IMG/VR virus record: IMGVR_UViG_3300037313_000136
Location: 1-51,701 of that record
Origin: a virus
Taxonomy: Duplodnaviria; Caudoviricetes
Reading direction: 5' to 3' (one strand)
Length of the DNA: 51,701 bases
Shown here piece by piece: positions 4,258-33,260 of this stretch. Below the pieces are notes generated by a model. The model searched no databases. It was not told the origin of the DNA and was given only the letters and a program-made list of their open reading frames with translations. Numbering within the stretch: position 1 is the first letter of the stretch; every line of letters starts with the position of its first letter. The translations under genes and the position numbers were made by a program.

Positions 4258-4278
4258 GAAAGGACAAAGGTTGTTGAA

Positions 4279-6894: not shown

Positions 6895-7068
6895 ATGCCT
6901 AATCCTAATGAACTAGCTCGTATTGAAGATGAACTTCGATACTGGAAGAATAACCTGAAACATCACATTGGTTCTAAGAGTACGAAGGAGTACATTCTTC
7001 GTCAGATCAGACAATGTGAAGCTACTCTCGGTATAGAAAGTAAACCGTACAATTCAAACGAATTCTAG
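6895..7068 (+). CDS. Hypothetical protein (57 aa)
   Basis: AAGGA RBS, ATG, MPNPNELARIEDELRYW...; first ORF after the promoter. Confidence 0.65.
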   Translation: MPNPNELARIEDELRYWKNNLKHHIGSKSTKEYILRQIRQCEATLGIESKPYNSNEF

Positions 7069-8713
7069 TCACCTTCCATGTCCCAGTCCAGACTGTACTA
7101 GTTCTGATGGATATTCCGTCGATCCTAAGACTGGGTGGGGTCGATGCTTCGTCTGTAATTATAAGGTACCACCAAATGGCCGATCAGCTAATACAACCCT
7201 TAGTGGTAATGTTCTTAATAGTAGTGATTTTCCTAGGAGCAGTGTGTCTAGTAATCAACTAACTCCACTAACTACAGTATTCCGAGACATTGACCACCGA
7301 AAGATCAGTAAGGCTGCTTGTCAGAAGTACGGTATTGATGTTGTACTAAATGATCCTGTGATTGAAGCACGATTTCCGTACTTCATTAAAGGCAAACATG
7401 TAGTTAATAAAGTTCGAACTAAGAATAAGAAATTCTGGCAAGAAGGTTCTGAAGAAGATAAAAAGAAGGTAGAGCTATATGGCCAGCAACTCTTTGCTGA
7501 AGGTAGTGCAAAGGCTATCACAGTCGTCGAGGGGGAGTATGATGCTCCTTGTGCTTGGACTATGCTCGGTAGTCGTTATCCAGTGGTTAGTGTTGCTAGC
7601 GCTGGCACTGCTGTTAGAGACATTCAAAATAATTATGAATACCTTGATAGTTTTGAGCGGATAAATCTCTGCTTCGATGCAGATGAGGCGGGACAAAAGA
7701 TTTCCAAGGAAGTAGCGGAGCTATTCAAACCCGGCAAGTGTCGGATTATGCAGCTTACCGAAGGTAAGGATGCTAATGCTTATCTGTACGCTGACAAGCA
7801 GAAGGAATTTATTGATGCGTGGCACAGAGCAGTTCCGTTCATGCCGGATGGACTCAAAATCGGCACGGACATGTGGGACGAAATCATCAACCGTCCCCAA
7901 CACTACCAAGTTAATTACCCCTTCTCGGGACTTAACCGCCTCACATACGGGATACGACTCAGCGAGATGGTCGTGGTTACTGCGGAAACTGGGATCGGTA
8001 AGACTTCAATTCTTAAAGAGATCGAATACTCTTTACTTGCCAATCCTGATCTAAAGGAAAAGAACTATGGCGTCGGTTTCATCCACCTTGAAGAACCGAA
8101 CTATGATACCGCTCTCGGTCTTATGTCTATTCACGCCAATAAGCCTTTCTATCTTCCTGACACCGAGCGAACTGAGGATGAGCTGCGACAAGCCTACGAT
8201 GGCTGTATTAACTCTAGTCGGGTGGTTATTTGGGACCATTTCGGCAGCAACTCTGTCGAGGCAGTCCTCAACAAGATTAGGCACATGCACGCTCTTGGTT
8301 GTAAGTACATTGTTCTGGATCACCTTAGCATCGTTGTCAGCGATCAATCTGGTGATGAACGTAAGCAGCTAGACGAGATTGCCACTAAAGCCAAAACACT
8401 TTGTATGAACCTCAATATCGCCCTTATCTGTGTAATTCACCAGAACAGGCAGGGGCAGATTAGAGGTACTGCTGGTGTTGAGCAGTTGGCCAACATTGTA
8501 ATCAAGCTTTATAGGGACAATACAGATGTTAACGAATGGCGTAGGAACGTTACCAAAGTCGTGGTTGAAAAGAACCGTTTTTGCGGTCGTACTGGCCCTG
8601 CTTGCTACCTCTTCTGGAACGGCATCACCGGTCGTCTCGAAGAACTGGACATGGAACAAATCCAGAAGTACGAGGATGGAGAAAGTATCTCTGACGATCA
8701 AGTGGCCTTCTAA
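7052..8713 (+). CDS. T7 gp4-like primase-helicase with N-terminal Zn-binding domain (probable ATT start)
   Basis: HLPCPSPDCTSSDG...CFVC in frame upstream of GTG 7244; TOPRIM VVEGEYD and CFDADEAG; Walker A AETGIGKT, LDHLSI and KNRFCGRTG. Confidence 0.92.
   Translation: MQTNSSHLPCPSPDCTSSDGYSVDPKTGWGRCFVCNYKVPPNGRSANTTLSGNVLNSSDFPRSSVSSNQLTPLTTVFRDIDHRKISKAACQKYGIDVVLNDPVIEARFPYFIKGKHVVNKVRTKNKKFWQEGSEEDKKKVELYGQQLFAEGSAKAITVVEGEYDAPCAWTMLGSRYPVVSVASAGTAVRDIQNNYEYLDSFERINLCFDADEAGQKISKEVAELFKPGKCRIMQLTEGKDANAYLYADKQKEFIDAWHRAVPFMPDGLKIGTDMWDEIINRPQHYQVNYPFSGLNRLTYGIRLSEMVVVTAETGIGKTSILKEIEYSLLANPDLKEKNYGVGFIHLEEPNYDTALGLMSIHANKPFYLPDTERTEDELRQAYDGCINSSRVVIWDHFGSNSVEAVLNKIRHMHALGCKYIVLDHLSIVVSDQSGDERKQLDEIATKAKTLCMNLNIALICVIHQNRQGQIRGTAGVEQLANIVIKLYRDNTDVNEWRRNVTKVVVEKNRFCGRTGPACYLFWNGITGRLEELDMEQIQKYEDGESISDDQVAF
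7176..7262 (+). CDS. Candidate 28-aa single-pass membrane peptide nested in the primase linker
   Basis: TAAGGT RBS; MADQLIQPLVVMFLIVVIFLGAVCLVIN. Confidence 0.4.
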   Translation: MADQLIQPLVVMFLIVVIFLGAVCLVIN

Positions 8714-8775
8714 ATATTATCATGATGCCATGACACCTGCTCAAAGGTTAGAACTTCTATTTGAATTGGTGACTT

Positions 8776-8934
8776 ATGCTTGAAGTCCTCACAGATGAAC
8801 AGATCAATCAACTAATATCAGACCATTGGAGGGAGATACGAGGATTACTGAGAGAGAAGAAAAGGAGGCAGATTGTACCTAACACCGACGAAGAACCATT
8901 GGATACTGGACACGGAGACGGATGGGCTGCGTGA
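8776..8934 (+). CDS. Hypothetical protein (52 aa)
   Basis: GGTGA RBS and ATG; fills the gap between helicase and polymerase. Confidence 0.5.
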   Translation: MLEVLTDEQINQLISDHWREIRGLLREKKRRQIVPNTDEEPLDTGHGDGWAA

Positions 8935-10687
8935 CGACTGCACTCAAATCTTCGTTGTTTGTGTTGAGAATGCTGTAACACCTGAGAAGCATTCATTTCG
9001 TACAAAGGAAGAATTCAATGCGTGGCTATCAAAAGATTTTATTTTGGTTGGTCATAACATTGTGGCTTTTGATACTCCCGTTCTTAACTCTTTGTGGCAG
9101 TGTAAAATTCCTATACGCTTACTTGTGGATACTTTTGTTCTTAGTATGCTTTACTCTCCTAGTCTCAGCGGAGGCCATTCTTTGGAGTCGTGGGGGCAAA
9201 GGCTAAAGTTTCCTAAATTAGAGCACAAGGACTTCACTCAATACAGCGAAGAAATGAGGAAATATTGTGAGAACGATACAGCAGTTACCAAACGGTTATT
9301 CAGTCGTCTCACACAACGGATGCGTGATGTTGGCTTCACCGAACGGGGGGCCATGCTGGAAACTTATAGCTGGCATATCATACAGAATAAACAGAGACGA
9401 CACGGCTTTCCGTTTGACGTGGAACGGGCCGAAAGATTGTACGTGGAACTACGAGCCAGAGAAGAGGAACTAAAACGTGAAATCTACAAACAATGGCCAC
9501 CGCAGTTTCTACCTGTTGCAGAATTTAAGCAGCATTCTAAGAAAGACGGAAGCCCAACTGCCAATTTTACGCGCCATGAACAACAATATCCTGAGTTACG
9601 GAAACGTAAGGATGGGGGATATACGGCGTATGATTGGGTTGAGTTTAACCTTGGAAGCCCAACTCAGAGAGTACAGAAACTTATTGAAACAGGATGGGAG
9701 CCTACTGCTAGAACAAAAGCAGGCAACCCGAAGGTAGATGAAGACTCACTAAACAAGTTCGCGGAAACGTCCGGCAACGAGGCGGGCAAACTCCTAGCCA
9801 AGTGGGTAGTAATTAACAGCCGAGCCAACATGGTTAATACTTGGCTCAATGCTTACAATGAAAAGACGGGGGCTATACATGGAAATCTCTGGTTGGCTAG
9901 TACCCTTCGGTATCGTCACGACAACCCTAATAGCGCCAATATCCCTGCTGTTCGTCTGGACAAAGAGACTGAGCAAGTTCTTCGGGGTGAGGCCGGTTTT
10001 TGGACGTACGAAACTCGTGATCTTTGGACTTGTGGTGATGCTAGTAAATACAGTCTCGTGGGTATTGATGCTAAGGGCATTCAGCTCCGTGTTTTAGCTC
10101 ACTACCTAAACGACGAAGAATTCACAAGAGCTATTTTAAGTAAAGACCCCCATGAAGCAAACAAACAACGACTCGGCCTCAGTTCTCGTCCACTTGCAAA
10201 GACAATTGTATACGCTACCCTTATGGGAGCGGGAGACGGTAGAATTGCTAGTGAAGCAAATGTGTCGCTACCAGAGGCTCGATCTGCTAAAGCAAAATTC
10301 TTCGACACCGTACCACAATTGCCGATGCTTGTTCGGAGACTTCAGAAGGAAGTTGAAAGAACTGGACGAATTACTCTCTGCGATGGAAGCCGAGTTCTAG
10401 TATCAAGTCCACATATGGTTATTCCTTATCTCCTTCAGGGCGATGAGGCTAAAATTATGAAGCAAGCAATCATTTTTATTGATGAGATTTGCCGAAGAGA
10501 AAAGATTGATACACATTTAGTTGGATGGATACATGATGAATTTCAATTCGTAGTAAAGAACGAAGATGTAGAAAGATTTACAAAATTAGCACTATCCGTC
10601 TTTCCAAGAGCAGGGGCATCATTTGACTACAATGTGCCGATTGAAGGCTCTGCTGCTGTAGGCAAGACATGGAGCCAAACGCATTAA
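8873..10687 (+). CDS. Family A DNA polymerase with 3'-5' exonuclease domain
   Basis: LDTETDG, GHNIVAFD and YCEND exonuclease motifs; motif A DAKGIQLR, motif B AKTIVYATLMGAG, motif C IHDE; AGGAGG RBS with TTG start. Confidence 0.95.
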   Translation: MYLTPTKNHWILDTETDGLRDDCTQIFVVCVENAVTPEKHSFRTKEEFNAWLSKDFILVGHNIVAFDTPVLNSLWQCKIPIRLLVDTFVLSMLYSPSLSGGHSLESWGQRLKFPKLEHKDFTQYSEEMRKYCENDTAVTKRLFSRLTQRMRDVGFTERGAMLETYSWHIIQNKQRRHGFPFDVERAERLYVELRAREEELKREIYKQWPPQFLPVAEFKQHSKKDGSPTANFTRHEQQYPELRKRKDGGYTAYDWVEFNLGSPTQRVQKLIETGWEPTARTKAGNPKVDEDSLNKFAETSGNEAGKLLAKWVVINSRANMVNTWLNAYNEKTGAIHGNLWLASTLRYRHDNPNSANIPAVRLDKETEQVLRGEAGFWTYETRDLWTCGDASKYSLVGIDAKGIQLRVLAHYLNDEEFTRAILSKDPHEANKQRLGLSSRPLAKTIVYATLMGAGDGRIASEANVSLPEARSAKAKFFDTVPQLPMLVRRLQKEVERTGRITLCDGSRVLVSSPHMVIPYLLQGDEAKIMKQAIIFIDEICRREKIDTHLVGWIHDEFQFVVKNEDVERFTKLALSVFPRAGASFDYNVPIEGSAAVGKTWSQTH

Positions 10688-10695
10688 AATAATGC

Positions 10696-10724
10696 TTGAC
10701 AAATGCTAACTAACATGGTATAAT
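10696..10724 (+). promoter_or_regulatory. Consensus sigma70 promoter upstream of SSB
   Basis: TTGACA-aatgctaactaacatgg(17)-TATAAT. Confidence 0.88.
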
Positions 10725-10754
10725 TAAGTATAAAGATTGAAGGAGATTACTGAA

Positions 10755-11321
10755 ATTACTAATAAAGCTGTTGAATTTACTATTCGTGGTTCTGTTGATT
10801 GGTGCAAGCTTCTCGGAGATGCACGTCCTTATACCGGCAATCCCAAGTTTGACAAGGGACCTAGCTGGTCAGTTGAAATCAATCCTGATGATGCTTCTCG
10901 TGGCAAGCTTCTTAAGCACGGCCTAGAAGAGAAGTTCAAGAAGGACAAGCCAACCAAGGCTGATGGTACCCCGACGAAGAACCCTCGTGACTATGATTTC
11001 ATTCGTCTGACTATTCTTGAGAACCGTGCAGATGGTAAGAAGAATGCTCCGCCTGAGGTTCAGGATGGATATGGACGACCTTGGGATCAGAACGTTGAGA
11101 TTGGTAATGGTAGTGTGTGCGACATTCTAGTTCGCTACGTTGACTACGGTACCACCAAAGGTCTGTATTTCAAGAAGATGCGTGTACTGAAGCTTGAAGA
11201 GTTTACAGGTGGTGGTTCAGACTTTGAGCCGCTGAGTGAAGATGATGAGTTCTTTGCACGTCTACCTGATGGCATGGAGCCTCAGATGGAAGAGGATTTG
11301 AACGATGACATTCCTAACTAA
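10755..11321 (+). CDS. Single-stranded DNA-binding protein (gp2.5-like), probable ATT start
   Basis: EIGNGS motif, acidic C-terminus DDIPN, position after the polymerase; AAGGAG lies downstream of TTG 10737 and 9 nt before ATT 10755. Confidence 0.75.
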   Translation: MTNKAVEFTIRGSVDWCKLLGDARPYTGNPKFDKGPSWSVEINPDDASRGKLLKHGLEEKFKKDKPTKADGTPTKNPRDYDFIRLTILENRADGKKNAPPEVQDGYGRPWDQNVEIGNGSVCDILVRYVDYGTTKGLYFKKMRVLKLEEFTGGGSDFEPLSEDDEFFARLPDGMEPQMEEDLNDDIPN

Positions 11322-11493
11322 GCTTGGTCGGGCACTCGGCCTGATTGAGTATACCGATTATTACACGGTTCAGAAGAACCCAAGAACTGGCAAGTATGAA
11401 ATCTATGACGGAGACGGCCATGCTGTTCGCGCGTATACACGACGTAGTGATGCCATCCGTGGTGCAGAGCGATCTGGCCTAACGCTTGTCTGA
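11305..11493 (+). CDS. Hypothetical protein
   Basis: GAGG RBS; coupled to both neighbours. Confidence 0.65.
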   Translation: MTFLTKLGRALGLIEYTDYYTVQKNPRTGKYEIYDGDGHAVRAYTRRSDAIRGAERSGLTLV

Positions 11494-12118
11494 ATTAGAA
11501 CAAAGAAGTCCCGAGTGGTACGCAGTTCGTTGTGGTAAAGTTACCGCCAGTCGTATCGGGGATATTCTAAAGACACTACGCAATGGTTCTTGGGCTGCCT
11601 CTAGGCGTAACTATGCAGCCCAACTTGTTACTGAACGTTTGACGGGTAAGGTAATTGAACACCCGTATACGAATGAGTACATGGAGTGGGGTAAGGAACA
11701 AGAGCCGCTCGCCCGCGATCTTTACCAAGAGCTTCATGGACCTGTCAGTGAGGTTGGCTTCGTTCCACACCCATCCATTCCTGCCTCGGGGGCTTCTCCT
11801 GATGGATTGGTTGGGGACGATGGGTTGCTTGAAATCAAGTGTCTCATTAAGGCCAACCACATTGACATTCTTCTGACCGAGAAGATTGACGATAAACACA
11901 TGTACCAGATGCTTTGGCAAATGGCATGTACAGGTCGTCAATGGTGTGATTTCGTTAGTTATAATCCAGAGTTACCAGAACACATGCGTTTGTTTGTAAA
12001 GCGTGTTCATCGGGACGAAGAAGAGATTAATCGCATTGAGTGGGAAGTAAAGACCTTCTTGGATGAAGTTGACACTACCACCAAGGCGTTAAGTGAAAAG
12101 TTCAGTAGTGTCGAATAA
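11486..12118 (+). CDS. YqaJ / lambda-exonuclease family nuclease
   Basis: QRSPEW, VTAS, MEWGKEQE, GASPDG, LEIKC and YQMLWQM. Confidence 0.92.
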   Translation: MSELEQRSPEWYAVRCGKVTASRIGDILKTLRNGSWAASRRNYAAQLVTERLTGKVIEHPYTNEYMEWGKEQEPLARDLYQELHGPVSEVGFVPHPSIPASGASPDGLVGDDGLLEIKCLIKANHIDILLTEKIDDKHMYQMLWQMACTGRQWCDFVSYNPELPEHMRLFVKRVHRDEEEINRIEWEVKTFLDEVDTTTKALSEKFSSVE

Positions 12119-12506
12119 GAAAATTCGAAACCCTAAGTTCAAATCCCGCTTTGAGGAATGGATTTGGGAAGTCTGTCAGAAGTACAACCACCCAATTGAA
12201 TATGAACCGGTACGACTTTCATACAGACTAGAAAAGACTTATACACCGGATTTCCGCCTAAAGAACGGTATTATCATTGAAGCCAAAGGTCGGTTCGATG
12301 CCGACATGCGGAGGAAGATGCTGGCTGTAAAGCGAGCGCATCCTAAACTGGATATTCGTTTTGTATTCCAGAACGCACAGAACAAGTTGAGCAAGAAGGC
12401 TAAGATGAAATACTGGGAATGGGCGGAACTCCATAATTTCAAATGGGCTGAGGGTACTATTCCTCAAGCTTGGTTTAAGGAAAAAAGACCATCAGCAAAA
12501 TCTTAG
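12093..12506 (+). CDS. T7 endonuclease I-like Holliday junction resolvase
   Basis: KSRFE, YTPDF, IIEAKGRF and DIRFVFQ. Confidence 0.9.
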   Translation: MKSSVVSNKKIRNPKFKSRFEEWIWEVCQKYNHPIEYEPVRLSYRLEKTYTPDFRLKNGIIIEAKGRFDADMRRKMLAVKRAHPKLDIRFVFQNAQNKLSKKAKMKYWEWAELHNFKWAEGTIPQAWFKEKRPSAKS

Positions 12507-13204
12507 TACTAGACATTGAAACAATGGCTGCGCTCCAATGGGGTTGGGGCATGTACAACCAGAACTTCGGTGTCAATCAGATTGAGCAGTTTCCAGAGAT
12601 TATCTGTATAGGGTACCAGTGGTTGGGTGAGGGGCCAGCCGAGTGTCTTACCCAGTGGGATATGACTCAGGAGGAAATGCTTCTGACTACGTTGGACCTA
12701 ATTCAACAGGCTGATGCAGTTGTGGGCAAGAACAGTGACAAGTTTGATCTAAAGTGGATTAGAACAGAACTGCTTAGATATAAGCTTCCGCCTCTTCCAC
12801 CAATTACAAGTATTGATCTAGAGAAGGCAGCTAAGAACTACTTCCGGTTTCACAGTAACAAGCTTGAGTATATTCTTCTTTATCTTGGTATGCAGGGTAA
12901 GTTGGAGCACGAGGGCTTCGGATTGTGGCACAAGGCTTATCATGGACATGAACCAAGTCGTCGCAAGATGATACGGTACTGTATTCGTGATGTAGCACAG
13001 ACCGGCAAGTTGTACAGGAGAATGCGTCCGTTCATTGAGAACCATCCTGCTTTGCGTTCTCTTGGTTCAGAAGCTTGTCCTAAGTGTCAGAGCAAGAATA
13101 CCAAGAAAGATGGTATCCGTAGGACAGCTTGTTTTCATATTCAGGTGCACCAGTGTAATAACTGTGGTGGTTACTTCTCAGGTAAAAGGACTAAAGTGGC
13201 TTAG
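12491..13204 (+). CDS. RNase H-fold / DnaQ-like 3'-5' exonuclease with C-terminal Zn ribbon (probable ATC start)
   Basis: KILVLDIET (ExoI) lies upstream of ATG 12524; GKNSDKFD, YCIRDV and CPKC...CNNC. Confidence 0.85.
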   Translation: MSKILVLDIETMAALQWGWGMYNQNFGVNQIEQFPEIICIGYQWLGEGPAECLTQWDMTQEEMLLTTLDLIQQADAVVGKNSDKFDLKWIRTELLRYKLPPLPPITSIDLEKAAKNYFRFHSNKLEYILLYLGMQGKLEHEGFGLWHKAYHGHEPSRRKMIRYCIRDVAQTGKLYRRMRPFIENHPALRSLGSEACPKCQSKNTKKDGIRRTACFHIQVHQCNNCGGYFSGKRTKVA

Positions 13205-13365
13205 TGGACGCAGAAACTAAAAAGCGTATTGAAGATTTCTTCGAGGGGTTCGAGTTGGTTGAATTCCTACAGTTACCTGTGTCCGAAATCATTGAACGAT
13301 TTGAAGATGAAATTGAAGAGGCTTTAGATGAAATTGAAGAACTCATGCAAGTGCGAGGAAATTAA
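13204..13365 (+). CDS. Small acidic hypothetical protein (53 aa)
   Basis: GTG overlapping the upstream stop; MDAETKKRIEDFFEGFELVEFL... Confidence 0.6.
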   Translation: MDAETKKRIEDFFEGFELVEFLQLPVSEIIERFEDEIEEALDEIEELMQVRGN

Positions 13366-13403
13366 AGATCGAAAAGGACGTAGAGTTAGCGAGGTATTCT
13401 ACT

Positions 13404-13787
13404 ATTTCTGGCTTGGCCGGGACGGTGAACGGGAGCAGCATCCCCTTGGCTAAGGAATTTACTACAGACGATCCCTCTCTTATTGGTACAGGGGCAATTA
13501 AGTACGATGGTGGAAAGCCCTGCTCTTTCAGGGGAGCTATTGAGTATTTTCCTAGGGCAATCACAGCTGTCGCTGAGATTAGCACTTTCGGTGCTCAGAA
13601 GTACGCTTGGAAAGGATGGGAGGGCGTAGATGATGGTATCAATCGGTACTCAGATGCTATGGTCCGCCACATGCTGAAGGAAGCGATGGGTGAAGAAGTT
13701 GATCCTGATAGTGGCCTTCTTCACGCTGCTCATTTAGCTTGGGGTGCTCTAGCTCGACTAGAGCTTATTCTACGTGAACGTAAGTGA
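13404..13787 (+). CDS. dATP/dGTP diphosphohydrolase-domain (DUF5664-like) protein, probable ATT start
   Basis: KYDGGK, FGAQKY, DAMVRH and DSGLLHAAH; GAGGT 8 nt before ATT. Confidence 0.8.
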   Translation: MSGLAGTVNGSSIPLAKEFTTDDPSLIGTGAIKYDGGKPCSFRGAIEYFPRAITAVAEISTFGAQKYAWKGWEGVDDGINRYSDAMVRHMLKEAMGEEVDPDSGLLHAAHLAWGALARLELILRERK

Positions 13788-14079
13788 TTTCGTAAACGGA
13801 CTATTCGAATTCACAGGAGCGTTAATGACACTGTTGAGTGTTAAAGCACTTCTGAGAGACAAAGAAATCAAAGGTATTCATTGGGGACCAATTGTATTCT
13901 TTACTAGTTGGTCCTCATTCAATCTTTGGTTTTATCCTTTCAACAAGCTTTGGTGGAGTTTCTTTGGTGGTGCAACCATCTTTGTTGTAAACTCTATTTG
14001 GCTTTATTTGGTATGGTACTACAGTGGAATTAAAAACAGGACTAGACGATCAGTGGATTTCTCTGCTCAGCGGAGCTAA
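13774..14079 (+). CDS. Small 3-TM membrane protein (SemiSWEET/PQ-loop-like)
   Basis: Three hydrophobic segments with a KEIKGI loop. Confidence 0.6.
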   Translation: MNVSDFVNGLFEFTGALMTLLSVKALLRDKEIKGIHWGPIVFFTSWSSFNLWFYPFNKLWWSFFGGATIFVVNSIWLYLVWYYSGIKNRTRRSVDFSAQRS

Positions 14080-14738: not shown

Positions 14739-14853
14739 TTTGTGTATTGATTGGAACAGAAACAAGGCACGTCTAGCAAAGGACCCGAAGGATCGTGCCC
14801 GTTACGAAGATAACATTAAGAACCTAGAGGCTTTTCGAGATGCCAACCTGTGA
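14713..14853 (+). CDS. Small hypothetical protein
   Basis: GAGGA RBS and TTG; fills the gap. Confidence 0.45.
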   Translation: MKKRKTAIDLCIDWNRNKARLAKDPKDRARYEDNIKNLEAFRDANL

Positions 14854-15214
14854 TGAACCTGTAAGTCTTCCTGCATATAAGCTTTACTACAGTCGAGAAG
14901 ATCGTATTGCTGAACTACACGATCAAAAAGATCGCATTCAGTACGATGGTAATGATGGTCTTCGTATCACTGACGTAACGGACACTGCTGCTGAATTCTG
15001 TGAGAAAATGTGTGACGCACTGGATCGTTATGTTGATAGTGAAGACGATGAAGAACTTGAATACAACAGACGTAATGCCATTGAGTGTTGGGCGCTTGCA
15101 CAGGCATCTCTATCAAAGGTGGCATGGGTAATGCGGTTCGACGGTAATGCCGCTTATCAACGGATGATTAACGCTCTCCACACAGGAGCAGCAGCGGATA
15201 TGAGAGGTTTGTAA
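14840..15214 (+). CDS. Hypothetical helical protein, possibly a diverged MazG-like NTP pyrophosphohydrolase
   Basis: GAGG RBS; all-helical acidic pattern in a nucleotide-metabolism block; catalytic motif not clearly intact. Confidence 0.5.
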   Translation: MPTCDEPVSLPAYKLYYSREDRIAELHDQKDRIQYDGNDGLRITDVTDTAAEFCEKMCDALDRYVDSEDDEELEYNRRNAIECWALAQASLSKVAWVMRFDGNAAYQRMINALHTGAAADMRGL

Positions 15215-15609
15215 TGAGAGTTCTTGTCTGTGGTGGTCGAGACTTCCTTAACAAGAAGTTGATGTATAATACTCTGGACGCTCTTTGCGAAGAATTTAAT
15301 CTCAAGGGTGAACCAGATGAATATGGCAATTGGATGCCACAAGGCATAACAATCATTAATGGTAAAGCTGCGGGTGCGGATACTCTATCGAGCGATTGGG
15401 CTATAATCAATTGGACTCACTTCGAAGAGTATCCAGCTGATTGGGAAACTCATGGTAGAGCCGCTGGTCCTATTAGAAACAAACAGATGTTGGTTGAAAG
15501 TAAACCAGACCTTGTTCTAGCTTTTCCCACAAAGAGAAGCAAAGGAACTTGGAATATGGTTAAGATAGCCAAAGAAGCCGGAGTTCCGGTAAGAGTTATT
15601 GGAGAATAA
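15214..15609 (+). CDS. YspA/DUF2493 SLOG-family protein
   Basis: RVLVCGGRDF, GKAAGAD, AGPIRNKQM and GTWNMV. Confidence 0.88.
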   Translation: MRVLVCGGRDFLNKKLMYNTLDALCEEFNLKGEPDEYGNWMPQGITIINGKAAGADTLSSDWAIINWTHFEEYPADWETHGRAAGPIRNKQMLVESKPDLVLAFPTKRSKGTWNMVKIAKEAGVPVRVIGE

Positions 15610-17527
15610 GATAGACGATTATCAACGATTTATACATGCGTCACGCTATGCTCGGTGGCGTGATGATATAGGACGACGAGAGACGTGGGAAGAAACTGTA
15701 CAGCGTCTCATTGAATATTATCGTAATATTTGTGATGATATTTATCAAACTCCCAAGGGTTATATATCCGGTCAGTTTGAAAGAGAGTTTGCTGAATTAG
15801 AAGCTGCAATAGTTAACATGGAAGTCATGCCCAGTATGCGGGCAATGATGACAGCCGGACCCGCACTAGATAGGTGTAACGTGGGTGCGTACAACTGTGC
15901 GTACTTGCCTGTTGACTCCCCTAGAAGTTTCGACGAAGCCATGTACATCTTGATGTGCGGGACCGGTGTTGGTTTTAGTGTAGAGGAAAAATATGTCAGT
16001 CAACTTCCACGGATTTCCGAATACTTTGATTATACCGATACCACAATTGTCGTTGCAGATAGCAAGGAGGGATGGGCAAAGTCTCTACGGGAACTCATTA
16101 CCCTCCTTATTGCAGGCCAAGTACCCAAGTGGGATACAAGTAACGTACGCCCTGCCGGTTCACGATTGGTCACATTTGGGGGACGTGCTAGCGGACCCGA
16201 ACCGCTTGAACGGCTTTTTGAGTTCTGTGTTTCAGTTTTTAAGCGAGCAGCGGGTCGCAGACTAACTTCTCTTGAATGCCACGACCTGATGTGTATGGTT
16301 GCCGATGTAGTTGTAGTCGGTGGTGTTCGTAGAAGTGCAATGATTTCTCTATCCGATTTGGGTAGTGAAGCAATGGCCACAGCTAAGTCTGGAAGCTGGT
16401 GGGAAGGTCACGTTCACAGACAACTTGCTAACAACAGTGCGGTGTATAATGGTAAACCAGAAATCGGAGAATTCCTCAAAGAGTGGAAAGCCCTCTACGA
16501 CTCCAAATCAGGAGAGCGTGGAATCTTCAATCGAGACGCATCTAAACGCATCGTTGAAAAACTTGGAAAGCGCGATCCGAACTTTGACTTTGGCACTAAC
16601 CCTTGCTCAGAGATCATCCTTCGACCTTTCCAGTTCTGCAACCTTACGGAAGTCGTTGTACGGCCTGAGGATGATTTTGCCAGCCTTGCAAGGAAAGTTC
16701 GCCTCGCTACTATTCTCGGCACAATCCAATCAACCTTCACCGACTTCCGATACCTCAGGAAAATCTGGCAAAAGAACACGGAAGAAGAAAGACTCCTTGG
16801 AGTCAGTCTCACAGGAATAGCAGATAATGAGTGGGTCTTCAACAATAGAACCTATGCAGAACAAGAAGAACTTTTACAAAAACTCAAGAAAGTCGCTAAC
16901 GATACTAATGCGGAGTGGGCAGACCGTTTGGGCATTAATAAATCTGCTGCTATTACTTGTGTCAAACCTAGTGGCACTGTTAGCCAGCTTGTTAATAGTG
17001 CTTCTGGTATTCATCCAAGATGGTCAGCATACTATCTTCGTACGGTACGCAATGATGCCAAAGACCCGATTACTAGATTTCTCATGGAGGCTGGCGTACC
17101 GGCGGAGCCTGACCAGCGCAATCCTTCAGCGGTTGTATTCTCATTTCCCCAAAAGTCGCCTAGTGGGTCGATTGTACGGAGCGACCTTGACGCTCTGAGC
17201 TTTCTAGAAACGTGGAAGTGGTATCAAGAGAACTGGTGCGAGCATAAACCAAGTGTAACTATTTCGGTGAAAGAAGATGAATGGCTTGATGTGGCTTCTT
17301 GGTGCTATAGGAATTTTGATTTGCTTTCGGGTGTGTCTTTTCTTCCTTTTGACCCCACGGAGTATCCTCAGGCACCTTATCAAACACTAACCGAAGAACA
17401 ATATAATGAATGGGTACAGAAGATGCCCAAGTCTATAGATTGGAGCAAATTAGCTGAATACGAACGAGAAGATAACACAACCGGAAGTTTTGAACTCGCT
17501 TGCGTTGCAGGAGTCTGTGAGATTTAG
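15599..17527 (+). CDS. nrdJ: Class II (adenosylcobalamin-dependent) ribonucleotide reductase
   Basis: SRYARW, YNC, VVVGGVRRSA, TNPCSEI, CVKPSGT and C-terminal CVAGVC; no beta-subunit gene present. Confidence 0.92.
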   Translation: MENKIDDYQRFIHASRYARWRDDIGRRETWEETVQRLIEYYRNICDDIYQTPKGYISGQFEREFAELEAAIVNMEVMPSMRAMMTAGPALDRCNVGAYNCAYLPVDSPRSFDEAMYILMCGTGVGFSVEEKYVSQLPRISEYFDYTDTTIVVADSKEGWAKSLRELITLLIAGQVPKWDTSNVRPAGSRLVTFGGRASGPEPLERLFEFCVSVFKRAAGRRLTSLECHDLMCMVADVVVVGGVRRSAMISLSDLGSEAMATAKSGSWWEGHVHRQLANNSAVYNGKPEIGEFLKEWKALYDSKSGERGIFNRDASKRIVEKLGKRDPNFDFGTNPCSEIILRPFQFCNLTEVVVRPEDDFASLARKVRLATILGTIQSTFTDFRYLRKIWQKNTEEERLLGVSLTGIADNEWVFNNRTYAEQEELLQKLKKVANDTNAEWADRLGINKSAAITCVKPSGTVSQLVNSASGIHPRWSAYYLRTVRNDAKDPITRFLMEAGVPAEPDQRNPSAVVFSFPQKSPSGSIVRSDLDALSFLETWKWYQENWCEHKPSVTISVKEDEWLDVASWCYRNFDLLSGVSFLPFDPTEYPQAPYQTLTEEQYNEWVQKMPKSIDWSKLAEYEREDNTTGSFELACVAGVCEI

Positions 17528-17675
17528 GGAGATTGCTACTAACCTCCTGTTTGACTGCAAGCTAATGGATACTGGTGTAATTGTGCGTCAGTGTTATCCA
17601 TTTGATATGAATATCTCTTTTGTTGACTTTGATGAATTCGTGGAAAGGTTTGAGGTTTCCTATGCAGCTAGTTGA
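17490..17675 (+). CDS. Hypothetical protein (start uncertain)
   Basis: ORF fills the gap after RNR. Confidence 0.45.
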   Translation: MNSLALQESVRFREIATNLLFDCKLMDTGVIVRQCYPFDMNISFVDFDEFVERFEVSYAAS

Positions 17676-26849: not shown

Positions 26850-26850
26850 A

Positions 26851-27261
26851 TTAGAACTTAATCCTCATTTCAGTTAGGTTCTGCTTGATACCATTCTCGT
26901 AATATAGGACCTTATCGAAACCAGTTTTCCTAAATCCAAAGGACTCAGCGAACTTAATCTCTGGTTCCATTTCAGGTGGTATCCATGTATCGAGATGATG
27001 CCAACCTTTTTCTGTAAGTGCAACTAGAAGACAATCAAACACTTCTCTCAGGTGCTTTAGCCGAGCTGCATCAATTTCAATCTCATTATCAATATGGAAT
27101 GACAATTGACCACATACATCAATCAGATATAGTCGCAATCCATCTTCTTCGTAAATCGTATTACGGAATGGGCGAGCCACTGGCTGCGATGGACCATCCA
27201 ACGAGGTCGAAGTTTTTTCCTGCTTCACTGCTGCTGTATCTGAATTGGATTGATTTTCCAT
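26851..27261 (-). CDS. GNAT-like virion assembly protein (gp13-like position)
   Basis: KFAESFGF motif; lies between tail tube B and internal proteins. Confidence 0.55.
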   Translation of the reverse strand: MENQSNSDTAAVKQEKTSTSLDGPSQPVARPFRNTIYEEDGLRLYLIDVCGQLSFHIDNEIEIDAARLKHLREVFDCLLVALTEKGWHHLDTWIPPEMEPEIKFAESFGFRKTGFDKVLYYENGIKQNLTEMRIKF

Positions 27262-28654: not shown

Positions 28655-29415
28655 TATGGAAAGTTATCCGCAGTTTCACCAGTGGGATCATAATATTTAC
28701 CACCGCCACCGGGACCTGTTCCTGAACCAGCAGGAGGGGTGCCAGTATAAGTGGTGGTTGGAGTTCCATCCACTACACCAAGAGGACCGGGTTGAACCCA
28801 CCCCTGATTTCGAAGATTGTAGTAATGCTCATTGCTCAAAGTATCTGGTTGAGCCTCGTTGTTGAGATTATCAATCACACCAACAAAATCCCGAATTTTT
28901 AGAATCAATCTAATTATGCTTACATTATCTGTATCAGCATCATACTGAATTAGAATAGGGTCAATCACAGGAGAAGCTACAAACAGATAACCCTTTCCTG
29001 ATGCCATTTGCACCGGGTTGTTATCTACATCTGTAGTTGTAGCAAAAGGAGCTACATATGTACTAAGATCAACAGTGAAAGATTTAGGGCTGCCCGTTAT
29101 AGGAACAGCGTCTAAATCAAAGAAGTGCAGTGTTCGTTTTACTTGCATTACTAGGAAATTCACATCGGCATCATTACCGACACTCTTCCAAGCAAATTCA
29201 GAAATAAACTTTGTATCATCAAGATCAGAAAGAGTTGCAGCAACACTAGAAGGTTCGTAATCTAATCCAAGACGACGACTGCGACTGCCTTTAACTTTAA
29301 TTACAGTATTAAGCTCATCAATCGAAGCATTCTCAGGGTAAGTGAGAGGGCCTGCCTCAGTTATGAGGCCCTTAATGAAGCTCTGATAAAGCTTATTCTG
29401 TACTGGTCTTGGCAC
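28654..29415 (-). CDS. Tail tubular protein B / nozzle, N-terminal part
   Basis: FIKGLITEA, PENASIDELN, RSRRLG, IRDF and YNLRNQGW. Confidence 0.78.
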   Translation of the reverse strand: MPRPVQNKLYQSFIKGLITEAGPLTYPENASIDELNTVIKVKGSRSRRLGLDYEPSSVAATLSDLDDTKFISEFAWKSVGNDADVNFLVMQVKRTLHFFDLDAVPITGSPKSFTVDLSTYVAPFATTTDVDNNPVQMASGKGYLFVASPVIDPILIQYDADTDNVSIIRLILKIRDFVGVIDNLNNEAQPDTLSNEHYYNLRNQGWVQPGPLGVVDGTPTTTYTGTPPAGSGTGPGGGGKYYDPTGETADNFP

Positions 29416-29689
29416 TCTTTCCCTTCCGAGGATATTCTCTCTCAGCGATTTCCATAATCATTTTCTTCTTTTCAATCGCAGCTCGGTTCTCATTCACGTA
29501 GGCACTTACTGCCCTCCGAGCTTCCTGAAGAGATGTGAAGATGTGATCGCATAGGGCAGGCTTGTCACCCGACCCATCAATATCAATCCTGTAATAACCC
29601 TGTTCATTAATCTTAATGCAGATGTTCCGACCGCTAACGGTCATTTCATCCGTCTTGTAGCTATCAGCGTTTCCGCGAGTAATCGACAT
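29393..29689 (-). CDS. Hypothetical protein
   Basis: ORF between tail tube A and B genes. Confidence 0.6.
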   Translation of the reverse strand: MSITRGNADSYKTDEMTVSGRNICIKINEQGYYRIDIDGSGDKPALCDHIFTSLQEARRAVSAYVNENRAAIEKKKMIMEIAEREYPRKGKSAKTSTE

Positions 29690-30434
29690 GCGTTAGTACG
29701 CCTTTCTTTTGACCAGATACAGAAACAGGACGACGCTGAGAACGAACTAGCTGTCGTCTTGCACGAGATGCTTCGTTAGAATTAGCAATCTCTTTGATGT
29801 TAATGAAGCAAGCATTCTTTGCTTCTGCTAGCAAGTGAGGAAATTCACTGGCTGGAATAGGAGGAATAAAACTATCCGTCATGCTGAATGTCTTGTACTG
29901 AATAGCCCAAGCCAAAGCATTACTTCCAGTTAGATAGCTTTCATTAGTAGCATCGAAAGCATCGAAAACGATAGACTGAGTATCTTCGAAGATAGTGTAA
30001 TACCTTGGAGCGCGATCATTAGCAATAGGATAAGTAATAGGAGAGGTCGAAAGTAGTTGGACATTTACATTTGACGCCGGATCGGCTTGCTCCACGATAT
30101 TCCTAATGAAGACTTCAGGATCGACATATACGCAGTCAATATAGGTAATGTCGGAAGAAGTATTGCGATAATCTCTGTACTTAATCCACTTAACGAACTG
30201 AACATTAGTTGGCAAAGTCAAAACGTTTGGGGTTGAAGTGCTTCCGGGACTTACAAGGTTAACTAGTCCTTCGAAAGTACCGAAGTCGTGGTTAGTGTAC
30301 AAGTCTCTAAAGGTATTCTGAATTTCATCGGCCACCTGCTGAGACTCCACAGTATCAGTGATGCTGTTCACCTCGTCGGAGTTCATTGCCGACAAGATGT
30401 TCTGAGTCATCTGAAGCAGGGTTAGTTTTTCCAT
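29664..30434 (-). CDS. Tail tubular protein A / adaptor
   Basis: TLLQMTQNILSAMNSDEVNSITDTVESQQVA; synteny after capsid. Confidence 0.8.
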   Translation of the reverse strand: MEKLTLLQMTQNILSAMNSDEVNSITDTVESQQVADEIQNTFRDLYTNHDFGTFEGLVNLVSPGSTSTPNVLTLPTNVQFVKWIKYRDYRNTSSDITYIDCVYVDPEVFIRNIVEQADPASNVNVQLLSTSPITYPIANDRAPRYYTIFEDTQSIVFDAFDATNESYLTGSNALAWAIQYKTFSMTDSFIPPIPASEFPHLLAEAKNACFINIKEIANSNEASRARRQLVRSQRRPVSVSGQKKGVLTHVDYSRKR

Positions 30435-30445
30435 CTATTCCTCGT

Positions 30446-30481
30446 AAAATAAGGTCCGAGAAGCTATTAACCTCTCGGACC
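30446..30481 (-). terminator. Intrinsic terminator after the capsid block
   Basis: GGTCCGAGAG-gttaatag-CTTCTCGGACC followed by TTATTTT. Confidence 0.75.
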
Positions 30482-30486
30482 AGATA

Positions 30487-30660
30487 TTAGTCAATTGGTT
30501 TCTTATACTTGAACCAATAATAGAAGCGAACGCCATACCAAGCCAAACCCGCAATTGCCGTAAGGAAAATTACAATAGGTTGGACGACCGGAATAACTTG
30601 ATTAAGAAAATAAGCGAGGGCTATTCCGGGGCCTGAGGCATCTGCAACATGTTTAAGCAT
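30487..30660 (-). CDS. Small membrane protein (holin-like, 57 aa)
   Basis: GGAGG RBS; hydrophobic segments and a basic C-terminus. Confidence 0.6.
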   Translation of the reverse strand: MLKHVADASGPGIALAYFLNQVIPVVQPIVIFLTAIAGLAWYGVRFYYWFKYKKPID

Positions 30661-30724
30661 CACTCGTCCTCCGTAAGAAGAGGGCAAGCGGTCCCCCACG
30701 AATAGAGAACCGCCTACCATATTG

Positions 30725-31231
30725 TTACGGCTTCAGAGCGATAGCCGGGTCAATGTAACTGATGATGAACTTCAGTTTACCGGCGGTATAAGTACCGACA
30801 GTAGAGGCCGTGATATACGAGTCCTGCGCCAGAGCGGAGAGCGGCACGGTAGCCACTGTACCCGCGTTAATCAGCGCAGTCGCCGAAATCGCTGTACCGT
30901 CAACCTGATACGTACCAAGCGAGTAGCTAGTACCACCAGCCGGAGCAACAATCGTCATCACTTCAATCGAAGTAACTACAGCACCACTCGGAATGAAAGA
31001 GTCAAGACCCTTCTCAAATCCATCCATAGTACCATCGTTGTTGCGGTCAGCGGTGTACATCGTACGCGCAGCACCAGCCAGTTCAACGTTAAGCTCGACT
31101 TGCTTACGCTCGCCAAGGGTGTTAACCGCACCGAGCTTGCCAGCACCGCTGACAGTGTTCTTGCGGCGACCCTGAGACAGACCGAAGCGAACCGGAAGAC
31201 CATCAGAGTTATGCCAAAGCTGTTCTGCCAT
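30725..31231 (-). CDS. Capsid-associated (decoration) protein
   Basis: AAGGAG RBS; directly after MCP; WHNSDGLPVRFG start. Confidence 0.65.
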   Translation of the reverse strand: MAEQLWHNSDGLPVRFGLSQGRRKNTVSGAGKLGAVNTLGERKQVELNVELAGAARTMYTADRNNDGTMDGFEKGLDSFIPSGAVVTSIEVMTIVAPAGGTSYSLGTYQVDGTAISATALINAGTVATVPLSALAQDSYITASTVGTYTAGKLKFIISYIDPAIALKP

Positions 31232-31244
31232 GTTATATTACTCC

Positions 31245-32222
31245 TTAGGCGATCACGTTGGGGGAACTGAGAACAGTAATGAAGTTCTCAGGGCGGAAAA
31301 GCTTCAGACCGTAACGGCAAGTCGTAACGTACTCTTCACGCTGGAAGTCCTTGTTGAACTCGCTGTCAACCTTCGGATGCTGAGCAAACGCGCCGACAAA
31401 CGGAACCACAGACTGGTCACACGAGAAGAAGAGGTTAGCAACTGCGTTGGTACCCGAGGCAACCGAGTTAATCGTCTCGCCAGCCGCAATAACGGGCAGG
31501 TAGTTCGAAACGTAAATATCGAAGCCATAGATATTACGCGAGAAGCGCATTCCCGAAGCAATACCCGTCTGGATAATACCGTCCCACATGGGGTTGTACG
31601 AAACAGAAAGAGTGTCACTCAGAGTGTTGAAGTGGTACTCGACCGAAGGATCAACAATGGCGCAGAGATTACGCTGGGGAACGTTTGCCCTCTTGAGAGA
31701 GAAAAGTGCCTGAGCGAAATCCTTGAAACCAAGGGTCTTGTTCGAGTTCGCCGTATCCGAACCAACCCAACGGTGGTTTGCACCATTGATCGGGTTAAGC
31801 GAAGAGGCCGTTTGGCCATTCGCCGTACCGGGCTGACCACAATTCAGAATGTCTCCTTCGAGACGAACTGAAATGGCACGAGCCTGCTTCGGAACAAAGG
31901 ACGCCTCAACACGGGCAGCATACATACTGTCCTGACGTTCCTTAACGGTGATATACGTGGCCGACGAGAGGTATTCCGTGATCGTGAACTGGAAGTTACC
32001 GGATGCCAGTGCAGTGTACTGGACCGGAGTATCCTCCGCGTAGTCGTTCACATCGAGATCACCAATCGACGGGATATTAAGCGTAGCGCCAGTATCCGGC
32101 ATCTGAATCCAGTCAACGTACTGCTGAGCATTAAGCTCGTCCAGTAGCACGTCCTTAAGCTGGTTAGACCAGACATTAGAACGGATCAGAAGCGGAGTAA
32201 CGCCAGTGGTAACACCAGCCAT
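31245..32222 (-). CDS. Major capsid protein
   Basis: 325 aa after the scaffold; LNIPSIG, IYGFDIYVSN and RYGLKLFRPE. Confidence 0.88.
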   Translation of the reverse strand: MAGVTTGVTPLLIRSNVWSNQLKDVLLDELNAQQYVDWIQMPDTGATLNIPSIGDLDVNDYAEDTPVQYTALASGNFQFTITEYLSSATYITVKERQDSMYAARVEASFVPKQARAISVRLEGDILNCGQPGTANGQTASSLNPINGANHRWVGSDTANSNKTLGFKDFAQALFSLKRANVPQRNLCAIVDPSVEYHFNTLSDTLSVSYNPMWDGIIQTGIASGMRFSRNIYGFDIYVSNYLPVIAAGETINSVASGTNAVANLFFSCDQSVVPFVGAFAQHPKVDSEFNKDFQREEYVTTCRYGLKLFRPENFITVLSSPNVIA

Positions 32223-32244
32223 TAGTAATTAACTCCTAGTAAAG

Positions 32245-32976
32245 TTAGTTGAAGAACGCTTCACCCATTTCCTGAGCCGCTTTGTGCATTGCAGCCTGCG
32301 TCTTAGGATTCCAATAAAGCTTAGCGTCAGATTTACGAATCTGCTCGAAATACGCATAAGTATTGGGCTTAGGGGCACCAGTATTCATATTATGCGGATT
32401 AACGTCAGAGCTAGGAGCGGGAGTCGAGTTGCTCGTCGGCTTACTATCAGCATCAATGCCCATCGTAGTTAGAAAAGCTTTAGGGGACTTTGCTGCCAGT
32501 TCCTTCATGTCCGAGGGCTGAAGCCCAAGTTCACGAGCCTTTGCAACAACGGCCTCCGCCGCCTTAGTAACATCGCCAAGTCGTTCGACTAGAACTTCCT
32601 GTACGAGATTGGCATTGCCCTGAAGTCGCTTAAGAGTATCTCTCTCTTCCAACGCCTTAGCAATTCGCGTGTCAAGGTCTTCAGCCGGATCACTAGCAGG
32701 AGCCACAGGAGCGAGGTTCTGATTGCCCCCTGTCTCGGTAACTGGTTTAGGCGGTTCTTGATTACGCTGTTCTGCAAGTTTCTTCAGCTCATCGCTGATA
32801 AACTCGCGGGTGCTCTGTAGGTCAGTACGAAGTTCATCAATGTGATTATTAGCATTGGCATAAGCCTTAGCTAGTTCATCAACAGACTTGAACTTCTTGC
32901 CCTCGCCTACGAGCTGTTCGAGAGCATTATCATCCGATGGGGTCACACCGTCATTATTAAAAATATCATCGGCCAT
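32245..32976 (-). CDS. Capsid scaffolding protein
   Basis: LVGEGKKFKSVDELAK; coiled and acidic; upstream of MCP. Confidence 0.8.
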   Translation of the reverse strand: MADDIFNNDGVTPSDDNALEQLVGEGKKFKSVDELAKAYANANNHIDELRTDLQSTREFISDELKKLAEQRNQEPPKPVTETGGNQNLAPVAPASDPAEDLDTRIAKALEERDTLKRLQGNANLVQEVLVERLGDVTKAAEAVVAKARELGLQPSDMKELAAKSPKAFLTTMGIDADSKPTSNSTPAPSSDVNPHNMNTGAPKPNTYAYFEQIRKSDAKLYWNPKTQAAMHKAAQEMGEAFFN

Positions 32977-32996
32977 TGGTCATGGTCCTTTTCTAG

Positions 32997-33260
32997 TTAG
33001 GGTTTGGATTGGTCATCCTTAGGAGTACAAAGCATTGCGATTTGTCGCATCGCCTTGCGGTACCCTAACCAGTGAGCTTGTTTCATAGCCCAGTTAGGGT
33101 TTTCGAAGTCAGTGTCACTTACTTCTGAACTCTTACACATATTATAACATATTTCTGCGAGTTTGTCAAGTAGTTTTTGATTTCCTTCCAACAAACCGAG
33201 AAATTGCATCTTCTCGGGATTGCTTAGCCCTGTGGTCCAGTGGGGGTCGTACTTGATGAT
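32997..33260 (-). CDS. Hypothetical protein between portal and scaffold, probable ATC start
   Basis: AAGGAG 7 nt before an in-frame ATC at 33260; ATG 33209 lacks an RBS. Confidence 0.65.
   Translation of the reverse strand: MIKYDPHWTTGLSNPEKMQFLGLLEGNQKLLDKLAEICYNMCKSSEVSDTDFENPNWAMKQAHWLGYRKAMRQIAMLCTPKDDQSKP
33141..33169 (-). promoter_or_regulatory. Consensus sigma70 promoter for scaffold/capsid genes
   Basis: TTGACA-aactcgcagaaatatgt(17)-TATAAT. Confidence 0.85.

Follow-up and report, generated by a model that had tools for sequence, protein, structure and literature searches.

Seven genes of a virus (Duplodnaviria; Caudoviricetes) recorded as IMG/VR entry IMGVR_UViG_3300037313_000136 appear to start at the near-cognate isoleucine codons AUU, AUC or AUA, led by Shine-Dalgarno (SD) sequences, and these starts probably act as attenuators that lower protein output. 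The record, analysed over its whole length of 51,701 bp and called the window here, is complete, with direct terminal repeats, and near-identical DNA is present in soil and rhizosphere runs. The proposed set comprises an HNH nuclease gene, the primase-helicase, the single-strand DNA-binding protein (SSB), an exonuclease, a dGTP-diphosphohydrolase-like gene, nrdJ and a portal-adjacent gene. What the DNA shows directly is which codons are present, in what context, and that relatives have ATG or TTG at the equivalent positions; from this we infer that ribosomes initiate at the isoleucine codons and do so weakly. The observation itself is real and extends beyond this genome. The window (G000) was compared with 87 related loci from viral contigs (L-numbers) and with five complete related genomes (G001-G005). 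The features concerned are listed below (ORF, open reading frame; nt, nucleotides; aa, amino acids).

687..1168, minus strand: free-standing HNH cassette (perfect promoter 1168-1140, AAGGAG 1122-1117, candidate start ATT 1109, ORF to 687)
6895..7068, plus strand: upstream 57-aa ORF ending in KPYNSNEF and a stop, overlapping the primase start, its frame 1 nt behind
7052..8713, plus strand: primase-helicase (zinc finger, Toprim and DnaB_C by Pfam), proposed start ATT 7052-54
7244..7246, plus strand: in-frame GTG in the linker after the zinc finger, AGGAG 4 nt upstream, codon 65 counted from ATT 7052
10696..10724, plus strand: perfect TTGACA-17-TATAAT promoter ahead of SSB
10740..10757, plus strand: SSB initiation region (AAGGAG 10740-45, 9-nt spacer, ATT 10755-57)
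10755..11321, plus strand: Gp2.5-like SSB (phrog_112)
12093-12506, plus strand: endonuclease I gene, its 3' end containing the exonuclease initiation region
12476..12493, plus strand: exonuclease initiation region (TAAGGA 12476-81, 9-nt spacer, ATC 12491-93)
12491..13204, plus strand: DEDD-type exonuclease (RNase_H_2), Exo I motif DIET upstream of the first ATG 12524
13355..13787, plus strand: dGTP_diPhyd_N gene (Pfam; former DUF5664), GAGGA 13355-59, 8 nt, candidate start ATC 13368
15611..17527, plus strand: nrdJ, class II ribonucleotide reductase, proposed start ATA 15611
32997..33273, minus strand: portal-adjacent 87-aa gene (phrog_8956), AAGGAG 33273-68, ATC 33260, ATC 33257

Isoleucine codons at the proposed starts of seven genes

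The weight of the case lies in the alignment of ATT, ATC or ATA (ATH) in the window with codons that are ATG or TTG in relatives. The original prediction, which noticed these starts from the letters alone, had proposed start-codon conservation across relatives as a check. This comparison came out in its favour: the same codon toggles between ATH and ATG for the exonuclease, nrdJ and the portal-adjacent gene, and SSB has ATT where other loci have ATG or TTG. It had also claimed that two genes lack any canonical start before an essential motif, which holds for the primase (zinc finger) and the exonuclease (Exo I); SSB and nrdJ in close relatives likewise have no canonical start before the part that must be translated.

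The exonuclease frame is preceded by the in-frame TAA 12476-78 and opens at 12479; TAAGGA is followed after 9 nt by ATC 12491, and KILVLDIET comes before ATG 12524, all as first described. ATC 12491 lies 13 nt before the stop of the upstream gene. At this position ATC is found also in L009 and G002, ATG in G003, L011, L051, L063 and L008, and TTG in L014, the context reading ATC-AGC/T-AAA-ATC in G000 and G002 and ATG-AGT-AAA-ATC in G003. In L010 the next codon is CTG, 8 nt behind AAGGA. Distant exonucleases carry ATG 6-8 codons ahead of DIET, which is the position of ATC 12491.

SSB showed the predicted AAGGAG, 9 nt and ATT 10755. In L003, L009, L010, L014 and L016, too, ATT follows an SD at 8-9 nt in a frame that lacks a canonical start; L066 has ATT with AAGGAG, but 5 codons further on it also has a GTG in frame. 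Relatives that retain ATT include some only 33-37% identical to the window, and elsewhere the codon is ATA (L011), ATG (12 more distant loci) or TTG (3 loci). The start reads ATT-ACT-(A/G)AT-AAA-GCT in G000-G002, and the G001 gene has its first canonical codon not before codon 148. An in-frame TTG upstream of the window SSB is badly placed relative to the SD.

For nrdJ, ATA 15611 had been offered as a possible start, and it aligns with ATG in G002, G004 and G005. The codon is found as ATA-GAC-GAT/C-TAT in G000, G001 and G003 and as ATG-GAY-GAY-TAY in G002, G004 and G005, with DDYQ following in each case. It lies 1 nt after the stop of the upstream gene and 6 nt behind GGAG, and the first canonical codon is number 64 in G001 and number 53 in G003. 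In the portal-adjacent gene the predicted AAGGAG, 7 nt and ATC 33260 are present, but it is the second ATC, 33257, that aligns with the ATG of relatives: ATC-AAG-TAC in G000 and G002 corresponds to ATG-AAG-TAC/T in G001 and G004, with K-Y following. Position 5 of the PHROG profile aligns to residue 8 of the ATC-started protein, and the start lies 34 nt before the portal stop.

The DUF5664-type gene had been assigned the start ATT 13404 behind GAGGT at 8 nt. Both elements are present, but ATC 13368 is the better start, because the conserved ARYSTISG lies upstream of ATT 13404. ATC 13368 comes 2 nt after an upstream TAA and is the only start-like codon of the window upstream of ARYSTISG, a segment kept between the window and G001 via synonymous changes (GCG AGG against GCC CGA). 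ATC stands at this position in L002 and G002 as well; in G001 an ATG lies in frame 5 codons further downstream, 8 codons ahead of ARY, compared with 7 for the ATC of the window.

For the primase-helicase, the in-frame TAG 7034-36 and ATT 7052-54 were found as predicted, and the zinc motif HLPCPSPDC...CFVC precedes every canonical codon, the first being GTG 7244. Before the zinc finger the frame is open only at 7037-7078, where ATG, GTG and TTG are absent and ATT 7052, 9 codons ahead of the first zinc-finger Cys, is the sole isoleucine codon. Matches of the primase in cultured phages (tblastn) start at HLPCP. The codon 9 before the zinc-finger Cys, matched to relatives by position, is ATG in L072-L077, L065 and L059-L061, TTG in L038 and L044, and CTG in L058, L069, L070 and L087. 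ATT 7052 lies 14 nt before the stop of the 57-aa ORF. The overlap of this ORF with the primase is kept in five relatives (L009, L010, L016 and L066 among them); since it is conserved, coupling of the two is likely, and we regard the ORF as a possible coupling partner of the primase. In addition, GTG 7244 may be an internal start for a helicase-only form like gp4B of T7; an SD-led start in the linker between zinc finger and polymerase domain was found in 5/28 relatives among those listed (L009, L011, L029, L031 and L034). Ahead of the pair, the leader at 6783-6894 places 110 nt between a perfect promoter and the small ORF and contains a G-rich terminator-like hairpin at 6840-6854; the leader as a whole (6783-6900) does not fold better than shuffled sequences (z = -1.49).

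The HNH gene has AAGGAG, 7 nt and ATT 1109 on the minus strand, as first reported. Its Pfam match to HNH_5 is weak. Alignments with distant homologues begin at residues 13-22, ahead of the first ATG (residue 29), and the N-termini of two annotated homologues are at least as long as that of the ATT-started protein. Close relatives of this gene were not found in viral contigs.

A census of 64 curated starts gave 41 ATG, 9 GTG, 7 TTG, 3 ATT, 3 ATC and 1 ATA, so that 7/64 are isoleucine codons. These make up 5/15 starts in the replication module and 2/49 elsewhere (Fisher p = 0.006, a post hoc test on our own curated gene list). The 11 early starts of the list, from 44023 to 51218, are all ATG. 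This agrees with the original description, in which early genes, scaffold and capsid use ATG; of the TTG starts named there, those of the polymerase (8873), YqaJ (11486), the portal (35092) and a 551-aa tail protein (43160) are present. SD sequences stand before six of the seven isoleucine codons (AAGGAG at 7, 9 and 7 nt, TAAGGA at 9, GAGGA at 8 and GGAG at 6), the primase being the exception, and at four of the seven sites the SD is 6 nt long. In HNH, SSB and the portal-adjacent gene the isoleucine codon also lies no more than 7 codons past an in-frame stop.

Among unique relatives, genes without ATG, GTG or TTG between the preceding stop and the motif amount to 12/49 primases (7 primases were left out of this count, their extrapolated residue not matching), 6/57 SSBs and 3/37 exonucleases. 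Control genes gave 2/22 for the polymerase (41 polymerases being left out), 2/29 for endonuclease I and 0/33 for g5350. In a maximum-likelihood tree of 61 primases including the window, 15/61 have no canonical start; the state changes 12 times, and well-supported branches force at least 8 changes. The labels are not more clustered than shuffled ones (12 changes against a shuffled mean of 13.5; 85/500 shuffles as low). An automated screen for conservation upstream of the first canonical codon flagged 22/65 window ORFs; it over-flags, because close relatives also align through 5' leaders, and it was used only for large gaps in G001 and G003.

Other codons were also observed at or near start positions. 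CTG with a good SD occurs in the primases of L058, L069 and L087, in the polymerase and endonuclease I of G002 and in the exonuclease of G001; in the three primases the CTG start overlaps a stop codon as CTGA, much as ATG commonly does in ATGA. A small ORF at 17454-17675, overlapping the end of nrdJ and kept in G001 and G002, opens with CTG, 8 nt behind GGAG; it may have another non-canonical start or be no gene at all. The gene at 6548-6751 has a canonical start in the window, yet the codon toggles among relatives: where the window, G001, G002 and G004 have ATG, the G003 homologue has ATT, followed by R-C.

Sequence error, truncation and recoding as rival explanations

Standard ORF calling yields exactly the truncated genes that would be expected if sequencing errors had removed the true starts, or if translation began at a downstream ATG or GTG and the upstream motifs were untranslated. 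For the primase such a start is at hand in GTG 7244 with its AGGAG, and T7 makes the helicase-only gp4B from an internal start in gene 4. Independent DNA speaks against errors. The exonuclease junction is identical in the L002 and L003 assemblies; two stretches, 6800-7597 and 12258-12594, are covered with 0 differences by contigs from DNA run X8 (not flagged as a source of the record), and 10361-10784 is covered by X10, also with 0 differences. Contigs of the RNA library X12 cover 6983-7177 and 10750-11001, also with 0 differences, and thus give no sign of RNA editing; regions that lack RNA-library contigs carry no weight either way. No start-codon difference is present among the contig rows listed, which leave aside 176 difference rows and 118 contig pieces. 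The original prediction had named reads with ATG at these sites as evidence that would overturn it; the independent contigs carry the same isoleucine-codon letters. We therefore reject sequencing error, as independent contigs from other runs and two related assemblies agree. Protein conservation runs through the upstream parts, which argues against truncation, and loss of Exo I would deprive a DEDD exonuclease of a catalytic element, as loss of the zinc finger would deprive a primase of an element for template recognition. Taken as one explanation, error or truncation is exceedingly improbable.

The primase and the exonuclease each overlap an upstream ORF in the frame that a programmed shift would require, so that fusion proteins could arise, the primase if ribosomes slip by +1 out of the 57-aa ORF and the exonuclease if they slip by -1 at the A6 run in the endonuclease I gene. 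The run GAAAAAAG at 12480-87 and the conservation of the KPYNSNEF overlap in five relatives are in keeping with this. However, the A6 of the window (12481-86) is shortened to A5 in L009 and to A4 in L066, both of which retain AAGGA with unchanged spacing. No upstream ORF overlaps the start of three primases that lack a canonical start: L052 and L021 show TATAAT, an SD and ATT, and L030 has TAAGAG and then ATA. The upstream ORFs of other primases overlap in a different frame, and SSB and HNH are entirely without an upstream ORF. By our reading of the sequence, nothing at TTC TAG would suit a +1 slip. Endonuclease I makes up a complete Pfam domain by itself, and distant exonucleases open with their own ATG at the corresponding distance from DIET. 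Frameshifting is thus disfavoured, since the slippery run is not conserved and upstream ORFs vary in frame or are absent in some relatives; we reject fusions as a general explanation and consider them very unlikely even for these two genes.

Probable attenuation, with conditional control and host tolerance as alternatives

In the mechanism that we favour, initiator tRNA would read AUU, AUC and AUA with a third-position mismatch, causing a fixed several-fold drop in protein from strongly transcribed mRNAs, by which replication enzymes and nucleases would be held at low levels. SSB and HNH would receive ribosomes through a full AAGGAG directly behind a perfect promoter; the other five genes start within the upstream gene or a few bases past its end, where terminating ribosomes would add to initiation. 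In the primase the isoleucine start may also set the ratio of the full-length to the helicase-only form. Low output would suit a homing-type HNH nuclease, an exonuclease and a primase. As to the size of the effect, AUU and AUA behind an extended SD reached about 10-30% of the output of AUG in Staphylococcus aureus, according to the available part of one study (PMC13009471), and for Escherichia coli the accessible text of another places AUU 6-8 times below AUG, and 4 times below when coupled (PMC3592434). The highly expressed capsid and scaffold keep ATG, which suggests that isoleucine codons are still weak starts in this host. The same retention fits the fallback of the original prediction, namely that such starts dampen strong promoters.

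Several observations weigh against attenuation or against individual assignments. SSB is normally needed in bulk and is a poor fit to low output, yet it keeps ATT. At the primase, ATT 7052 is nearly without an SD (duplex energy -0.4 kcal/mol) and L009 has ATG at the position of the window ACG 7058; the exact start of this gene is therefore uncertain. All seven cultured relatives checked have canonical annotated primase starts (ATG in 6, TTG in 1). The DUF5664-type gene offers ATT 13404 and TTG 13413 as alternative starts, and nrdJ has an in-frame TTG at 15599, 4 codons upstream, though badly placed relative to the SD. The SDs at the seven isoleucine sites are not significantly stronger than those at 57 canonical starts (medians -6.4 against -5.8 kcal/mol, one-sided p = 0.17). 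Moreover, when the 36 AAGGAG hexamers were screened for a candidate start 4-11 nt on, with an open frame of 45 codons or more and an in-frame stop no further than 7 codons upstream, 9 qualified, 5 with canonical and 4 with isoleucine codons. One of the latter, 31858, falls within the capsid gene but in a different frame and probably arose by chance; the SD pattern by itself is for this reason weak evidence. Finally, isoleucine starts number 3-7 each in G000-G003 and 0-1 in G004 and G005, a clustering that hints at a genome- or host-level factor. The ATT of SSB, the ordinary SD strength and this clustering leave room for conditional control or host tolerance.

Conditional control would tie the synthesis of replication proteins to host physiology through the level of initiation factor 3 (IF3), guanosine tetraphosphate (ppGpp) or competition with AUG-led mRNAs; in a further form, late ATG-led mRNAs could outcompete the middle genes with no change in transcription. 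The enrichment in the replication module and the ATT of SSB despite the bulk need for this protein are consistent with such control, as is the origin of the source runs in soil and rhizosphere, where hosts are often starved; the enrichment test, however, is post hoc. According to the part of PMC5499595 that is available, an AUU mRNA competes poorly with an AUG mRNA in vitro and nutrient limitation and ppGpp depress non-AUG starts, but AUA behaved like AUG. In Streptomyces, IF3 represses the GTC start that sets SigR levels, as stated in the accessible text of PMC5472188. These results were obtained with E. coli extracts and with Streptomyces, from which the host of this phage may differ. We consider conditional control possible but unlikely. 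A stronger version, that the phage purposely places its replication module under IF3-, ppGpp- or competition-sensitive initiation, which would report the translational state of the host or a phage-induced change in fidelity, seems doubtful to us. If true, it would amount to temporal or physiological control with constitutive promoters and without a phage RNA polymerase, and no form of such control would be more widespread than the loss of canonical starts in primases, which recurred in at least 8 lineages.

The original prediction went further and suggested that an early phage product relaxes the start-codon fidelity of IF3, so that genes with isoleucine starts are translated only after the product has accumulated. 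Its observation that these starts are concentrated in the replication module stands; none of the 11 early starts (44023-51218) is an isoleucine codon, and such codons are common in the module that follows. G000-G003 also share genes of unknown function that are missing from G004 and G005, for example 3496-4257, 11305-11493, 14840-15214 and 49945-50733, and the protein kinase of T7 has been reported to phosphorylate initiation factors. The relaxing product itself found no sequence support in IF3_C, tRNA, Rfam and Pfam searches. No IF3_C domain was found in six frames (the control matched in 10/14 genomes), which speaks against a phage IF3-like protein, and a phage initiator tRNA with an altered anticodon was rejected, as no tRNA was found in the record; nor was an Rfam RNA. 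Among 20 early and middle proteins scanned there is no translation-related Pfam domain, and PHROG gave the same result. Furthermore, non-canonical primase starts arose in at least 8 independent lineages, each of which would need such a factor, and six genomes are too few to tie any gene to the trait. We regard this switch as improbable.

A last explanation is that the host of the subclade discriminates weakly against AUU, AUC and AUA, so that changes from ATG to ATH are near-neutral and drift in. The start state of the primase flips often and without clustering on the tree, several genes are affected together in G000-G003 and not in G004 and G005, and CTG too occurs at start positions, all of which would be expected under such tolerance. 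On the other hand, capsid, scaffold and early genes, the most highly expressed, never use isoleucine codons, and the ATT of SSB is kept in 7 lineages and not scrambled among synonymous isoleucine codons. Host tolerance thus seems rather unlikely, and attenuation remains the reading that we favour.

Genome context and relation to known systems

Rightward genes run from ~43.8 kb across the record ends to ~18.4 kb, early genes first and then the replication and nucleotide module, and structural and lysis genes occupy the minus strand from ~43.2 kb back to 18.2 kb. Pfam and PHROGs assign a T7-type primase-helicase, a gp2.5-like SSB, a YqaJ-type recombinase, a phage endonuclease I, a DEDD-type exonuclease, a dGTP_diPhyd_N protein, a class II ribonucleotide reductase, a lysozyme and an internal protein with an SLT domain. 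The constitutive-looking promoters of the original prediction were confirmed: the window holds six perfect TTGACA-17-TATAAT copies against 0.01 expected by chance, and TG precedes the -10 element in all six. They are the following.

1140-1168, minus strand: perfect promoter
6748-6776, plus strand: perfect promoter
10696-10724, plus strand: perfect promoter
33141-33169, minus strand: perfect promoter, internal to the portal-adjacent gene
43246-43274, minus strand: perfect promoter
43364-43392, plus strand: perfect promoter

The last two diverge at 43.2-43.4 kb, between the late and the early block. A T7-type RNA polymerase domain was not found in six frames, a negative that is unvalidated, since the control for this search gave no match in any genome. 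The lysozyme, used as a host lead in a protein atlas, returned viral clusters only and no host, and megablast of 6800-13500 against cultured phages gave no match. We also observed a phiEco32-like peptide-modification set at 1198-5349 and 48588-48938 (GATase_6, COOH-NH2 ligase, Amidoligase_2 and the gamma-glutamyl cyclotransferase GGACT). The segments 51215-51700 and 1-672 are apparently one gene spanning the record ends, which is a single ORF in relatives; a gene cut by the ends is what a permuted or terminal-repeat assembly is expected to show.

The HNH cassette lies within the 5' end of a class II glutamine amidotransferase gene, at 664-1212. An SD and ATG TGT GGT lie at 678-686, the HNH stop follows at 687-689 on the opposite strand, and the body of the amidotransferase resumes at 1198 (TGT GGT ATT GTA) without an SD or start of its own. 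The cassette thereby cuts the catalytic Cys, which must be N-terminal, off from its start. Only an in-frame ATG at 1108 or TTG at 1162 could give a predicted amidotransferase with a pro-peptide. The HNH promoter spacer at 1152-1166 resembles the first 14 bases of the G002 amidotransferase gene. A group I intron around HNH was rejected. Rfam gives no match, and by our reading the duplicated TGTGGT makes the last exon base identical to the last intron base at every possible junction, whereas such an intron requires exon 1 to end in U and the intron to end in G.

Gene finders that accept only ATG, GTG and TTG strip the primase of its zinc finger and the exonuclease of its first catalytic motif, and they shorten SSB and nrdJ. 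With 15/61 related primases affected, virome catalogues probably hold many such truncations. Relatives in which the codon toggles form a natural series of matched ATG and ATH initiation regions, on which the tuning of expression by start codons can be measured. In the literature outside subscription journals and supplements we found no description of systematic isoleucine-codon starts in phage replication genes.

Like gene 4 of T7, the phage gene encodes a primase-helicase with an N-terminal zinc finger and has a candidate second SD-led in-frame start after it (GTG 7244). T7 makes gp4A and gp4B from two in-frame starts, and 4A starts at ATG; the long form here would start at ATT. The primase-helicases of the cultured SIO1-like and related podophages SIO1, P12053L, HTVC115P, HTVC103P, vRsoP-WF2, Pasto and CRP-361 are 35-41% identical over 94-98% of the length, but unlike the window these seven have an annotated ATG (6) or TTG (1) upstream of the zinc finger.

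Among bacterial genes, infC and pcnB of E. coli resemble the phage starts in that a near-cognate isoleucine codon behind an SD keeps translation low. infC starts 3 nt after an upstream stop, as far as the available part of PMC3592434 describes it, which is like nrdJ and the dGTP_diPhyd_N gene here. Unlike the phage, where 7/64 curated starts are involved, infC and pcnB represent one or two genes in ~4000, and the IF3 dependence of infC has been demonstrated. The excerpted text of PMC13009471 describes conserved isoleucine starts with a long SD in S. aureus cvfC1 (AUU), ccpN (AUA) and infC (AUA), four non-canonical sites in the whole genome, mapped by Ribo-seq; the phage sites differ in being predicted starts of replication genes, and the primase site lacks an SD. 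Streptomyces sigR, with its GTC start repressed by IF3, is similar as a non-canonical start setting stoichiometry in a coupled gene pair, and different in its codon, in being a single gene and in the genetic proof by IF3 mutants, according to the portion of PMC5472188 at hand. About 1 gene in 9 with an isoleucine start is far above the one to four reported for bacterial genomes in the available parts of PMC13009471 and PMC3592434. Near-cognate start codons as attenuators are thus an element of a known kind; what appears new, as judged from the searchable literature, is their density in one phage, their concentration in replication genes and their recurrence in primases.

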